A stretch of 64,000 nucleotides of DNA. Source: Escherichia coli (GTDB lineage Bacteria; Pseudomonadota; Gammaproteobacteria; Enterobacterales; Enterobacteriaceae). Location: the NCBI RefSeq assembly GCF_016903815.1, contig NZ_CP069974.1, one strand, 5' to 3'. Numbering within the stretch: the first letter of the stretch is position 1; every line of letters starts with the position of its first letter. Below, piece by piece: positions 1 to 6,000 of the stretch. The position numbers were made by a program.

Positions 1-3000
1 CACCTTCAGCCTCATGGTGATATGAAACCAGTCCAGCACATGCGTTGACTCAGGGTACATACCGAACTGGAGGTCCCTGAGATTATCCGCGCCGTCGGAC
101 AGAAAAAATATCTGCTGGTTGGCCTGCATTCCCTGCGCTGAAAGGTGGGTCATGAGCCTGCGTTCCGGATGACAGTCATCCTTCTGAACAAAACCGAAGC
201 GGCGGGTGTCAGCAGGCGCACCAACGGAAAAAGACTTCCCGGCAATAATTTCAAAATTACGCTTTTTGTCATCCCGATCGCGAACATAACCACCATCTAT
301 ACCCACCACAAGCGGTTTTCCTGGCCTGGGCAGGTTCCCCCAGTCGCGGGGGCAGCCGGAAAGAAAACCTGAATGAGCTTCAGCCTCAGCGTCAAGACGC
401 TGCGCCACCTGGCATAAATGATTCCTCACCGTTGAGGCATTCAGGCTGTGGCCCACCGGCAGAATATCTTTCAGCAGACGAGTCGTCATTTCATAGGAGA
501 TCATCGAGGCCCAGCGGGTTTCAATATATTTCAGTGCCGGGTGAGAATAATCGCCGGCCCAGTCGCTGAGCAAACTGACTGTCTTTGTATCACTCTCTTC
601 ACAACGGCACCGGTACACCCGAAGCCCGGATACCGGAATAACGCCAAACAGCGTCCGGTACCGTATTTTCTGTTTGCCTTTGATTCTGCGCGCAGCAAGG
701 CAGTGAGGGCACCGGATATGGTGTTGAGTATATTCGTCTGCCTGCAGCTGGACCACCGACTGCTGGACCGTATTCAGCAACAGCTTGGATTCTGACACCG
801 ATAATCCGATGTCGTTCCGGGTCTCCCCTGATTTCTGGATTGTCATCAGTTCCTCCGTTCGACTGGAGCCTGATTCATCGGTGATGACTATCTGGAGCGT
901 CAGTTGCATCATTGCCTCCTGCTGTGGTGGATGACTATCTCCCGGCTACTGGTTGTTCATCTGGTGACGAAGCTTATAATATGTGGAAACGCCAAGGCCC
1001 GCATGGTCGCAGGCGATCCTGAGCCTGACCCCTCTGCTTCTGAGTGCGTCAATTTCCTGGATCTTTTTGATATCGGCGCCGGGGCGCCCTGTTTTTTCAC
1101 CCCGTGCTTTTTTCGCGGCGATGCCGTCGGCCTGCCTTTCCTTCAGTAAGGCTCGTTCAAACTGGCTGAATGCCGACATCATGTGCAGCTGCAGTTCCTG
1201 CATCGGATTGTTTGTGCCGGCGCTGAACGTCAGCTGCTCTTTCAGAAAAATAAGGGTAACGCCCTGGTCACGAAGCCGGGTGGTGACAGCGCACATATCC
1301 GACATATTCCGGCAAAGGCGATCGATGGAATGAACCAGAAGCGTATCACCAGGGCGTAATTGCCCCAGGAGTTCCTGTAACCCCGGGCGGTTTGTGTCCT
1401 TCGCGCTGGCATGCTCAACACAAATTTTATCAGGCTGAAAACCCGCCTTTGACAATGCCTCTTCCTGACGGGCCGTATTCTGATCGGCCGAGCTTACCCT
1501 GATGTAGGCATATTGCACGCAAAACCTCCGGAAGGTCTTTAAACATCATAGAGATTTAAAGAATAATCCATAAACACTGATTTAGGGAGGTTTATAGACA
1601 TTTTTTCGGGGATCTGAGAGGCATGCTGAAAACGTATACCTTTATAGACATCAGTCAGCGACGACGGCCCAGCCAGATAACTTCAGGCTCCAGTACCGGA
1701 GATGCAAGGTCGAGCCTGCTCAGTTGCCGGTTGATTTTGTGGCGGTTGAACCTGACAGCATCCAGGTCGTCAGCAAAAGGGCGGATCTCGCCGACCGTTG
1801 TTTCATCATCCGCATTAACGATAGCTTCAAGAAACGCCAGGGTTTTATCGAACTCATCCGCAGCTGTGGCTCCGGGCATACCATGGCCGCTTATACAAAA
1901 CGGCGCTTTCAGCGTAGAGTTTTCATAAATGGCCTCAACACGAATGTCATGAAGCCAGTGCTCAAAGAAATTGTATTCATAGGTAAAGCGATCGCCAGCA
2001 TCAAAAGCAAAATCATCAATCACGACCCGGAACGGATTATCGACAAAACCGATGCCTCCTTCGTAGGAGATACCGTAATCTTTGCCATAAATGTGAAATT
2101 GATGGAGATGGTCGTCCCCCCAGCCCTGCACTATCTGGAAAATGAAGTGAAGCGCGGCCAGTGACGTGTCGGCAGCAATTCTCAGCCGACGCCAGACCAT
2201 CGGACTGACTCCATGAACTGCTATTTTGATGACGTAGATCTTCATAGTCAGCAGGTATTGTTATGAAATGATGGTGGTTATTTTAACCCCTGTAGATGGC
2301 ATCATTCGATGGCTGCCCCGAGGTTTTTCATGCTCTCCATCTTGTAACAATCAGGCATACCACGGAGCTTGTTTGCTTCAATCCGGGGTGACTCAAGTAC
2401 TTCAACCAGCTTCTTTTTCAACTGTTCACGTACCGTCGAGCCCAGCTTTCGCCATTCCTTTAGTGCCCGCTCGTCAAAATCCAGAAAATACGCCATCAGA
2501 GTTCATCCAGCGTCACACGTACTGGCTTAGGCTTACGAAGCCGTTCTTTCACTATCTCCACAAGTTCAGCATCTTCATCACTCAGGAGTGTCTGTTTGAA
2601 CGGCAAGCGTTCATTGTCAGCGATATACTCGAGCATGAGACGAAGCGCTTCAGAAGGAGTTACGCCCATTTTTTCAAGCGCGGCGTAAGAACGCGCTTTA
2701 AGTTCATCGTCAATACGCAGGTTAATGCTACCCATGTCTTACACCTCTTGTAATTACAAATGTCATTACAAGTATCGCACTACAACATGCTTAGGGCAAG
2801 TCACGAAGGAAGTCAGAAAGTAGTCGTAAGAACGGTGATCACTGTCCGCTTTGTGCCAATAGCGGACATTGCTGGCTCATGGTATGTTAGTTTAAGGAGG
2901 CAGGTTATGCCCTGTATTTCGCTGTGGTATAATAGTTGCGCAATTGATACAAGGGAGCGTTACATCGTGAAAATTGTTTTCGAGGTTAATGGAAAGAAAG

Positions 3001-6000
3001 TTCCACTAAAATCTTTAAAATACATAAGCAAAAAAGATCAACTCGAAGTAATGAAAAACTGGTTCTTTGAAAACTTTGAAGATCCGGCAAATGCTTGTCC
3101 GTATGAAAGTAGAGAAGGTGGCTATGCTTACATATATGGCGGGCCGTATGATGCGAGCGAAGAACTACAATCCATCTTCGGTCAATATGTTAAATCTGAG
3201 TATATTGAGGAATTAGTAGATGAATTACAAACACAATGTTTTGACTGGTCTGGAAACTCAAATAATATAGATGATTGGTACGATGATGATATCTACGACG
3301 CTGTAACGTCTTCCGGTAATCCGTATTTAAAATTCATTGATAATATCGATAAAATAAAAAAACTTGCAAAAGATAAAACTGAACAACAGCAAAAAAACCA
3401 CTTGCTTAGTTTGCTCTACACGAATGTTATTACAGCTTTGGAAACGCTTTATGTTGAGCTATTCATTAATTCTATAGAGAAAGATGATGTCTACATAGCC
3501 AATTGTATAGAAAAAGGTAAGACTGAATTTAAAGTAAGCAAAGATATTGCTGCGTTGCCTTTCAAGGGTGAACCCATCGAGAAAATTAGGGGAGAGCTAA
3601 TCAGGTCAATCAAGGAACACTTGATCAGTGCAAGCTGGCATAGCACTAAAAAGGTAATCGACCGCTATGAAGCTACATTCGATATAAAAGTACAAAAAGA
3701 CTGTCCGATAGAAGCTATTGAATTGGCAACCCTCAATCGAAATCACTTAGTGCATCGTGGTGGAAAGGATAAAGAAGGGAACCTCGTAGTGATTACAGAC
3801 CAGGATCTTGAAACGCTGATTGAAAATGCATCGAACCTGGCAATTATGCTCTACAACAGTTTAAATGTAGCAACGAATAAAACCACCATTTTGCAACCAG
3901 ATGACAAACCGTTCATTCATGAATTTTAATAGCGCAGGTCATACATGGATATTCGCACACGAAAGACAAAATTTTTAGAGTCGTTAGATTCAACTGAAGT
4001 GATACGCAAAGCAGTAAGTCTCGCTATAGATTGCATTATTGATAATCATAATAGTAATGAAGATACCCCCTTAGTTATTACCAGCTATGATGATCTCTGT
4101 AGAATCCAGGTGCTAAATTATGTACAGGAGTTTTGCGAAGCTGCATTCCCTGATATGGATGAATATTACTTTAGTCCTAACATACTTCGCATCAACGGCA
4201 AGACTAGTGAAGAAGCTTGTATTAACTTAATTAAACTCTTAAGAAGTACAAAAGGCATGCTATTCTGGTCCGATGCCCCATCGTGGTTCGCTAGCCTCCC
4301 CGACGGATTATTCCATGTTGTTAACATTGATCAAAAAATCGTTACTCGCGGCCTTAATAAGAAAAACTCTAAGCCGACAATAATCAATAAAGATTACAGT
4401 GTAGATACACTACTATCAGAGCTATTTTTGAATGGCGCACACATGGAGCAACCCAACGTACACAACGTTTCTGAGGGAAACATGAAGTTCTATGATGAAT
4501 GCCATGCTGGATTAATCAGACCAATACCCGCTCCAATAGGCGCGTCATACGATGAAGAGATCACAATTAATTCTCCAGATTGGCAAAAGCTCGCGTGTGT
4601 AGCTTTACGCCGCTATCAGTCGAAGGAATGTCATGACGGAATGCAATGGGATACAACCGATCATGGTTGGACTGATGTAATCGCGTATCCATTCGTCGAA
4701 GAAATACAATCAATGGATAATAGTGGTTATCGACAATGTTTAGTTGGGCTGGTCACAATAAACAATTCAAATGCAAATTCTCCGTACCTATCTACCGTTT
4801 GGATACATCCATTTTATCGCAGGAGAGGGTTATTAAGTAAGTTATGGCCAAAATTACAAGAGTTATATGGAAGTAACTTCGAAATTGAGCGACCTAATGA
4901 AAATATGAAAGCATTTCTGAAAAGTGCGAAACACGCAGATTACTAATTTATGAATCAGTCTGTGGAGTTAGGGTTGGTGTGAACAAGTAGGGTAAGAGCC
5001 TCAACGTGATGCTATGCCGACCTGCTCCCTGAGAATTCACACAGAAGGCTGCTAGCAATGTCTGCAGATCGCTCTTAGCGGACATTAGCATAGGCTATTT
5101 ACCATAACGCCTCATTACGCGTACCGCTCAGACGGCCTGAGCGCGTTTCTGACGTATCCCCGTTAAAAACAGTAACAAACCACCCGAAAATGCACGCCAG
5201 AAACGCTACGTAAGAATCTATGGCACTGTTGCAAATAGTCGGTGGTGATAAACTTATCATCCCCTTTTGCTGATGGAGCTGCACATGAACCCATTCAAAG
5301 GCCGGCATTTTCAGCGTGACATCATTCTGTGGGCCGTACGCTGGTACTGCAAATACGGCATCAGTTACCGTGAGCTGCAGGAGATGCTGGCTGAACGCGG
5401 AGTGAATGTCGATCACTCCACGATTTACCGCTGGGTTCAGCGTTATGCGCCTGAAATGGAAAAACGGCTGCGCTGGTACTGGCGTAACCCTTCCGATCTT
5501 TGCCCGTGGCACATGGATGAAACCTACGTGAAGGTCAATGGCCGCTGGGCGTATCTGTACCGGGCCGTCGACAGCCGGGGCCGCACTGTCGATTTTTATC
5601 TCTCCTCCCGTCGTAACAGCAAAGCTGCATACCGGTTTCTGGGTAAAATCCTCAACAACGTGAAGAAGTGGCAGATCCCGCGATTCATCAACACGGATAA
5701 AGCGCCCGCCTATGGTCGCGCGCTTGCTCTGCTCAAACGCGAAGGCCGGTGCCCGTCTGACGTTGAACACCGACAGATTAAGTACCGGAACAACGTGATT
5801 GAATGCGATCATGGCAAACTGAAACGGATAATCGGCGCCACGCTGGGATTTAAATCCATGAAGACGGCTTACGCCACCATCAAAGGTATTGAGGTGATGC
5901 GTGCACTACGCAAAGGCCAGGCCTCAGCATTTTATTATGGTGATCCCCTGGGCGAAATGCGCCTGGTAAGCAGAGTTTTTGAAATGTAAGGCCTTTGAAT

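Follow-up and report, generated by a model that had tools for sequence, protein, structure and literature searches.

A lambdoid-prophage cassette with genes for a predicted HEPN protein and a GNAT-fold protein beside IS26 in Escherichia coli

The stretch of Escherichia coli DNA analysed here (the window; 64,000 nt of assembly GCF_016903815.1, contig NZ_CP069974.1) carries, between the antitoxin gene relB and the insertion sequence IS26, an AT-rich cassette with two co-directional genes. Their open reading frames, ORF1 (2760/2907/2967-3929, according to the start chosen) and ORF2 (3945-4946), are on the + strand and are separated by a 15-bp gap. This arrangement had been recognised in a preliminary description of the locus, which also named relB, a decayed relE and IS26 as neighbours. 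The start of ORF1 is ambiguous: the ATG at 2907 (340 aa) has a Shine-Dalgarno sequence, AAGGAGG, 6 nt upstream, and the GTG at 2967 is the start annotated by PGAP and lines up with the starts of homologues. The longest frame, from 2760, is an in-frame fusion with a remnant of ydfV. The features of the locus are listed in Table 1.

Location, boundaries and origin of the cassette

The cassette is a discrete accessory unit of lambdoid-prophage origin, which agrees with the horizontal acquisition proposed earlier. The GC content over 2843-5083 is 39.0% (ORF1 36.1%, ORF2 39.1%), against 50.7% in the left flank and 62.8% in the right one, and drops to 0.33-0.43 across the two genes. This calculation confirmed the AT-richness noticed before, while comparison with E. 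coli K-12, E. coli PA45B and plasmid pOU7519 corrected the extent of the unit, previously given as 2736-5221. To the left, positions 2339-2873 share 98.9% identity with K-12 Qin prophage DNA from relE through relB to the 5' part of ydfV, and Qin-type sequence is found again to the right. Since the flanks match Qin and the block between them matches a prophage, the cassette has replaced the 3' end of ydfV and flxA in a captured Qin fragment. Its joints fall in overlaps of 31 bp and 13 bp that contain the direct repeat TAGCGGACATT, whose left copy is also present in the prophage leader. These repeats may mark the recombination joint, or they may be chance microhomology; a third copy at window position 43270 is probably due to chance. 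The intergenic DNA next to relB is native Qin sequence outside the cassette, because the ydfV remnant separates relB from it. The sharing of the relB operator region, to which the preliminary description had drawn attention, is incidental, as this remnant and a recombination joint separate the cassette from relB. IS26 has a length of 820 bp. A scan of the cassette for promoters and terminators gave nothing above shuffled controls.

Genome comparisons revealed that the 2843-5083 block moves among prophages, plasmids and islands. It was found, in lambdoid prophages and with 99.9% identity, in 204 of 5,426 complete E. coli genomes, nearly always in the chromosome, and identical ORF1 and ORF2 proteins are encoded in about 200 E. 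coli genomes. In E. coli prophages it has replication genes (DUF977) on one side and hokD/DUF968/rusA/Q on the other. Only five plasmids in PLSDB carry it, among them a Klebsiella variicola plasmid identical across the entire query and a Citrobacter IncFIB replicon with several phage-type genes. The E. coli plasmid pCR-0268_2 has the same order as the window (relE'-relB-ydfV'-ORF1-ORF2-IS26). No match to the cassette was found in the INPHARED phage genomes, although both proteins have PHROG families.

Table 1. Coordinates of the cassette, its genes and domains, and the adjoining features in the window
Feature	Position	Strand	Remarks
Cassette proper	2843..5083	+	2,241 bp, 39% GC; 99.9% identity to E. 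coli PA45B lambdoid prophage over exactly that span
ORF1	2967..3929	+	320 aa, WP_014639476.1; HEPN/RES-NTD1 domain and HEPN domain; phrog_17908, function unknown
HEPN/RES N-terminal domain 1 (NTD1; PF18870), aa 26-92	3042..3242	+	hmmscan E=2.2e-4 in the window protein
Predicted HEPN catalytic motif R258-N-H-L-V-H263-R264	3738..3758	+	RNHLVH at 3738-3755, aa 258-263 counted from GTG 2967
15-bp spacer TAGCGCAGGTCATAC	3930..3944	+	Length and most bases kept in Erwinia, Aeromonas and viral-contig copies; retained upstream of ORF1-deleted solo copies
ORF2	3945..4946	+	333 aa, WP_000354966.1; two domains; phrog_16994, function unknown
ORF2 N-terminal alpha/beta domain, aa 1-165	3945..4439	+	Without family assignment
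ORF2 C-terminal GNAT-fold domain, aa ~170-333	4452..4943	+	Includes H288-P289-x-x-R292 at the motif-A position
Truncated relE	2302..2496	-	64 codons; incomplete according to PGAP; identity to K-12 RelE only over first ~52 aa; context, outside the cassette
relB antitoxin gene, Qin-prophage type	2496..2735	-	Context only
ydfV 5' remnant	2760..2879	+	120 bp; PGAP pseudogene; first 32 aa as in K-12 YdfV; in-frame fusion to the ORF1 leader
Direct repeat TAGCGGACATT, left copy, 11 bp	2860..2870	+	At cassette edge, inside the 31-bp overlap (2843-2873) of Qin ydfV and prophage cassette leader
Direct repeat TAGCGGACATT, right copy	5076..5086	+	Same sequence at right slot edge in K-12 Qin and pOU7519
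Qin-type right flank (K-12 flxA-ydfW interval)	5071..5220	+	90.7% identity to K-12, 98.8% to pOU7519
IS26	5222..6041	+	Inverted repeat GGCACTGTTGCAAA starts at 5222; transposase 5285-5989; bounds the captured prophage fragment; context only

Domains of the two proteins

The two domains of ORF1 were assigned with an alignment of 51 homologues, down to 26% identity. PF18870 (HEPN_RES_NTD1) matches 31 of these at E<=1e-3 and 50 at E<=0.1, and within this region W32-F33, P40, P45, G51-G52 and G58-G59-P60 are invariant. PF18735 (HEPN_RiboL-PSP) matches 21/51 at E<=1e-3, with a best value of 1.1e-10. R258, H263 and R264, together with the upstream residues E159 and W224-H225, are invariant throughout the alignment, and position 259 is either N or H. 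ORF1 thus has the Rx4-6H motif, the polar residue after the arginine and the conserved upstream acidic residue by which HEPN proteins are recognised (PMC3710099). The R-x4-H block reported in the preliminary description is indeed located at 3738-3755, but alone it is not significant, being present in 10.6% of shuffled ORF1 sequences and having a second copy in ORF1 at aa 213. It carries weight because it is invariant across the homologues and because these have Pfam HEPN matches, and the earlier guess of a HEPN protein is supported in this way. R258 and H263 are predicted to confer RNase activity. Against NCBIfam and PDB sequences ORF1 found no match, the PDB search giving only noise, and a homologue search for alternative effectors with NTD1 alone returned only short ORF1 fragments.

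Shortened products of ORF1, with 155-169 aa, are common (P0206-P0208; P0206 comprises 105 member sequences on 19 contigs), an abundance that fits frequent decay of the gene. In many proteins of the IMG/VR contigs L037-L055, HEPN/RES-NTD1 is joined to another kind of C-terminal module, in which a conserved G-H-N-x-P-P motif precedes a hydrophobic tail, and in two of these contigs (L052 and L053) NTD1 is at the C-terminus of a 428-aa protein. From these architectures, NTD1 seems to combine with several further modules that are uncharacterised.

The AlphaFold2 (AF2) model of ORF2 (pLDDT 90.2, pTM 0.81) has a rare N-terminal domain and a C-terminal GNAT fold. The N-terminal domain had no match in Pfam, NCBIfam or PDB sequences, and its profile retrieved only 23 proteins from 1.84 billion representatives, nearly all with the same architecture or fragments of it. 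In Foldseek searches with the model, the top PDB structures were the protein acetyltransferases HAT1, MYST and ESCO1, while AFDB yielded full-length homologues, relatives that consist of the GNAT domain only (158-174 aa) and bacterial acetyltransferases of the 'ESCO zinc-finger' kind. The model therefore agrees with the GNAT fold guessed in the preliminary description, and the nearest solved folds lean slightly to protein-lysine acetyltransferases. The match to Pfam Acetyltransf_1 is weak (E=2.2e-3; 8/41 family members at E<=1e-3), and no nucleotidyltransferase Pfam match was obtained. The sequence IHPFYRRRGLLSKL is found at nt 4803-4844; H288, P289 and R292 are invariant in the family, but the motif-A glycines are not. 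Binding of acetyl-CoA as a cofactor is plausible, and ORF2 probably would acylate a macromolecule, with acyl-CoA as the donor.

Relatives of ORF2 include the AFDB entries A0A3A3EPY3, A0AAW8PY87 and A0AAJ4ACL7. Stand-alone GNAT proteins of 158-174 aa from Pseudoalteromonas and Vibrio share 30-37% identity with its C-terminal domain, and a 298-aa homologue (40% identity) is labelled 'TIR domain-containing protein' in AFDB. The GNAT-only relatives and the TIR-labelled homologue hint at domain shuffling around the GNAT core. A TIR identity of the N-terminal domain is kept only as a lead, as it came from this one AFDB label and gave no signal in Pfam (including the most divergent members), in the PDB sequence search or in Foldseek on PDB. 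PD-Lambda-4_B identity of ORF2 was ruled out, there being no PADLOC match.

Linkage, genomic surroundings and interpretation

In E. coli, Erwinia and Aeromonas alike, the two genes of the pair are separated by this 15-bp spacer, whether they are carried by a prophage, a plasmid or a relaxase island. Identities of ORF1 and ORF2 are 96% and 92% for pairs in viral contigs, 93% and 89% in Erwinia, and 86% and 79% in Aeromonas caviae, where the pair is located in a relaxase-bearing island beside SIR2 and cREC_REC genes. The two genes are co-inherited, with equal synonymous divergence (dS, 0.41/0.46 and 0.151/0.154 for ORF1/ORF2) and a ratio of nonsynonymous to synonymous divergence (dN/dS) of 0.16-0.34. 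Both are under purifying selection across genera (dN/dS 0.16-0.41), and solo copies of ORF2 are intact, with values of 0.21-0.41.

Each gene also occurs without the other. ORF2 follows 15 bp downstream in the clade of the window copy (>=86% ORF1 identity), whereas ORF1 relatives at 56-74% identity are solo: 10/10 of those in viral contigs have neither ORF2 nor a remnant of it, and most have a convergent downstream gene. Solo ORF2 homologues at 87% (L063 and L064), 75% and 68% identity keep the last 50-77 nt of ORF1 and the spacer. L063 and L064 keep the cassette leader as well and differ in their breakpoints, and they therefore represent independent internal deletions of ORF1. Copies with and without ORF1 are intermingled in a tree of ORF2, and its more distant homologues (38-62% identity) lack an ORF1 within 5-6 kb. 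On a Providencia plasmid ORF1 is broken and ORF2 intact. The opposite situation, a wild-type-sequence ORF1 beside a disrupted ORF2, was found in E. coli SF-173 (IS1 inside ORF2, after ~aa 187) and E. coli GENOMIC23-002 (frameshift near aa 262), and both disruptions spare the ORF2 N-terminal domain. The bias toward loss of ORF1 fits this gene being costly. In E. coli MB56 (L073, 1657-5019), two opposed copies of the IS3-family element ISSen4 flank ORF1 alone and split it from ORF2, whose start is altered (337-aa frame).

In pOU7519-type plasmids the slot between relB and IS26 holds HEC-08 instead (PADLOC E=4.7e-145); in pOU7519 itself (L002) positions 6312-7608, which correspond to 2874-5070 of the window, contain a 59-aa ORF and a 363-aa gene mis-annotated as 'hsdR' (HEC-08/DUF3644). 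Plasmids that matched only the flanks have the same 1,808-bp spacing in 25/25 cases among the matches listed. Given this uniform spacing and the presence of HEC-08, resistance and virulence plasmids appear to have in this slot a defence locus whose content can be exchanged. HEC-08 has been validated by experiment as a HEPN defence system of one gene, and the histidine of its motif is required (Payne et al., bioRxiv 2024, 10.1101/2024.01.29.577857). Solo ORF1 homologues were found between a P2 gpA-type gene (phrog_91) and portal/terminase genes (L019 and L022), and others adjoin integrases. The P2 gpA-gpQ interval is a hotspot that holds old and tin and has been shown to carry antiphage systems (PMC9122126). 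In L063, PD-Lambda-4_A (E=0) immediately precedes the ORF1-deleted cassette, and a PD-T4-3-like gene follows at a distance of 2 kb. Other solo ORF2 copies follow a P4-alpha-type primase (L064), lie beside type IV secretion system genes in a conjugative element (L070), or are found in phage-plasmid-like replicons and chromosomal sites.

Beside the Aeromonas caviae pair (L067/L068, 7212-8293), a SIR2-domain gene is followed by a cREC_REC-domain gene. They have no PADLOC v2 match and could be another uncatalogued defence pair. The window contains a second AT-rich island (8373-8822, - strand, GC 0.30-0.34) between an IS91-family transposase gene and erm(B), encoding an acidic hypothetical protein of 149 aa (WP_013362817.1 in pCR-0268_2). 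To the left of the relE remnant, the 946-2245 block (- strand) includes a resolvase/recombinase gene (946-1518) and a gene for a 'plasmid pRiA4b ORF-3 family' protein (1655-2245); pCR-0268_2 has ISKpn19 and qnrS1 next to this block.

These data suggest, with a probability that we place at about one half, that the locus is a prophage-derived defence-type cassette in which ORF1 is an autonomous HEPN effector in the style of the antiphage protein aRES, and ORF2 is a separable protein. By its genomic context and by analogy, the cassette looks like phage defence and not like a toxin-antitoxin pair. It has taken the place of the segment from ydfV to flxA in a Qin-type relBE fragment captured by IS26 on a plasmid. 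ORF1 would most likely be a self-contained abortive-infection (Abi) effector built like aRES, with the HEPN/RES-NTD1 domain keeping the enzyme silent until infection. Once active, the HEPN domain (R258/H263) would cut cellular or phage RNA and so stop growth. In the clade of the window copy ORF2 would have come to share a transcription unit with ORF1, either as another module with an independent role or as a dispensable modulator, and would not be an obligatory antitoxin.

Several observations weigh against a defence cassette with an autonomous HEPN effector. The ORF1 protein of the window has itself no reportable PF18735 match in Pfam, only its homologues do, and its HEPN membership is therefore established by transitive homology. 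Motif A of ORF2 is degenerate (R292-R-R-G295-L-L, compared with Q/R-x-x-G-x-G/A; G295 is variable and Leu ends the motif), and in an alignment read by eye Leu also stands where motif B usually has a tyrosine, which makes its catalysis uncertain. In PADLOC-DB v2.0.0 ORF1 produced only noise (E>=0.01, to PglX, PDC-M13A and DpdH fragments) and ORF2 had no match at E<=1. No component model of PADLOC v2 matched either protein, including the PF18735-bearing PD-T4-2, PD-T4-5, PD-T7-3 and ApeA. The hotspot positions are correlative, since such sites also hold non-defence cargo, for example ydfV and flxA. The abortive-infection or anti-phage role proposed in the preliminary description finds support in context and analogy, but searches of the literature for the WP accessions, for HEPN+GNAT and for the PF numbers found no paper or experiment on either protein. 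Finally, a functional coupling of the two genes would account equally well for the conserved spacer, for their transfer together and for the absence of a terminator between them.

Such coupling could take the form of an obligate two-component system, either a type II/VII toxin-antitoxin or a sensor-effector Abi system, where the GNAT protein neutralises the HEPN RNase by binding or acetylation, or licenses it on infection. The spacer kept across genera, the equal dS, and the absence of a terminator between the genes are what such a system would leave. ORF1 has also been lost far more often than ORF2 (L063, L064, L069, L071 and the Providencia plasmid), as would be the case for a costly toxin that leaves an orphan antitoxin, and the sparing of the ORF2 N-terminal domain in both disruptions may reflect a binding-type antitoxin role of that domain. 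Mutual dependence, however, is contradicted by the intact ORF1 persisting beside disrupted ORF2 in two E. coli genomes and by ORF1 relatives that are solo, with convergent neighbours and no trace of ORF2. Furthermore, intact solo ORF2 is under purifying selection, so that it must be valuable without ORF1, its family reaches hosts lacking an ORF1 homologue nearby, and the aRES paradigm is that of NTD1 effectors controlling themselves. Given the solo lineages, the ORF1 deletions and the ORF2 disruptions, classical toxin-antitoxin dependence is unlikely, the toxin-antitoxin-like reading of the preliminary description is not supported, and we regard the obligate system as a whole as quite unlikely.

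The two genes could also be functionally unrelated neighbours, ORF1 being a defence RNase and ORF2 an acetyltransferase that aids mobile elements, for instance by anti-defence activity, of which the GNAT anti-CRISPR protein AcrVA5 is an example, or by modification of a host factor. The many kinds of mobile elements and chromosomal sites with solo ORF2, the protein acetyltransferases among its nearest folds and its GNAT-only homologues are in line with this explanation. On the other hand, the ORF1-deleted copy of L063 lies between two defence genes, which suits defence better than anti-defence, and the two genes have remained joined, their spacer unchanged, over ~14-21% of protein divergence. 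We consider independent functions unlikely. It is improbable, in our estimate, that the two genes form an immune module of a new two-component type, the GNAT enzyme with its sensor-like N-terminal domain either controlling an aRES-type HEPN RNase through acetylation (as a counterpart of HEPN-MNT based on that modification) or diversifying its action, or that ORF2 alone is the first GNAT single-gene antiphage or anti-defence effector. Both ideas are kept in view because of the conserved spacer, the co-transfer and the spared ORF2 N-terminal domain. That the cassette is decaying, functionless prophage cargo brought to the plasmid with IS26 is very improbable. It does lie in a patchwork of remnants (relE', ydfV') beside IS26, and broken copies of both genes exist in nature, but in the window both ORFs are full length, their dN/dS values indicate constraint across genera, identical proteins recur among E. 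coli genomes, and the catalytic residues are invariant.

If ORF1 protects against phages, it would extend the aRES principle, in which a shared N-terminal control domain is combined with interchangeable suicide enzymes, from NAD+ depletion to RNA cleavage, and E. coli would then allow a direct test of the NTD1-HEPN prediction of 2013. About 4% of complete E. coli genomes have the cassette, which in the window is carried by an IS26-rich multiresistance plasmid. The same slot holds an insert sized as HEC-08 on at least 25 other plasmids among the matches listed, which suggests that resistance plasmids exchange phage-defence cargo with prophages. ORF2 belongs to a very rare family (23 clusters among the 1.84 billion representatives) that recurs in defence islands, and is a candidate for a new effector class.

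Comparison with known systems

The closest parallel to ORF1 is aRES, which combines PF18870 with a RES domain, is standalone and not operonic, and acts against diverse phages in E. coli through NAD+ depletion and growth arrest, without being a toxin-antitoxin system (Osterman et al., bioRxiv 10.64898/2026.01.28.702374). Both proteins have an N-terminal PF18870 domain and ~300 aa and are found in defence islands or mobile elements of Enterobacteriaceae, and relatives of ORF1 are standalone as aRES is. However, aRES is a RES NAD+ phosphorylase with NAD+ as target, while ORF1 carries an R-x4-H HEPN domain, would be expected to target RNA, and is followed by a GNAT-fold gene in the window clade. 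ORF1 is not a member of aRES, because it has no RES match and its C-terminal domain is HEPN. NTD1-HEPN and NTD1-RES architectures were catalogued in silico and predicted to have an Abi-like role (Anantharaman et al. 2013, PMC3710099). ORF1 can be compared with the RiboL-PSP/AbiD-AbiF-related HEPN proteins and with the MAE_18760-type proteins, whose NTD1-HEPN architecture it shares, and its relatives match PF18735. That study is a computational prediction with no phenotype and describes no GNAT association (0 occurrences of GNAT or acetyltransferase; PMC3710099).

HEC-08 resembles ORF1 in being a single HEPN protein with an Rx4-6H histidine, needed for HEC-08 function, and in occupying the same relB-IS26 slot in pOU7519-type plasmids. 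It belongs to another HEPN family, with an N-terminal HEPN domain, zinc-ribbon-like C-terminal domains and no NTD1. A relationship between the two was examined by hhalign and no kinship is claimed, since the probability was 3%, although the Rx4H motifs were aligned.

In HEPN-MNT type VII toxin-antitoxin systems, the minimal nucleotidyltransferase (MNT) neutralises HEPN by AMPylation. They are similar to the cassette in having a HEPN RNase beside a transferase-fold gene that could in principle modify it, but the partner in the cassette has a GNAT fold instead of a minimal nucleotidyltransferase, the HEPN gene comes first, and both cassette genes occur alone. ORF2 can also be compared with the GNAT toxins TacT, AtaT, ItaT and KacT, with which it shares the fold and the carriage by mobile elements. 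These toxins have ~160-175 aa, are paired with a small ribbon-helix-helix antitoxin and are possible translation-targeting acetyltransferases. In contrast, ORF2 has an extra N-terminal domain within its 333 aa and no small partner gene, and, as it survives alone, it is not a constitutive toxin.

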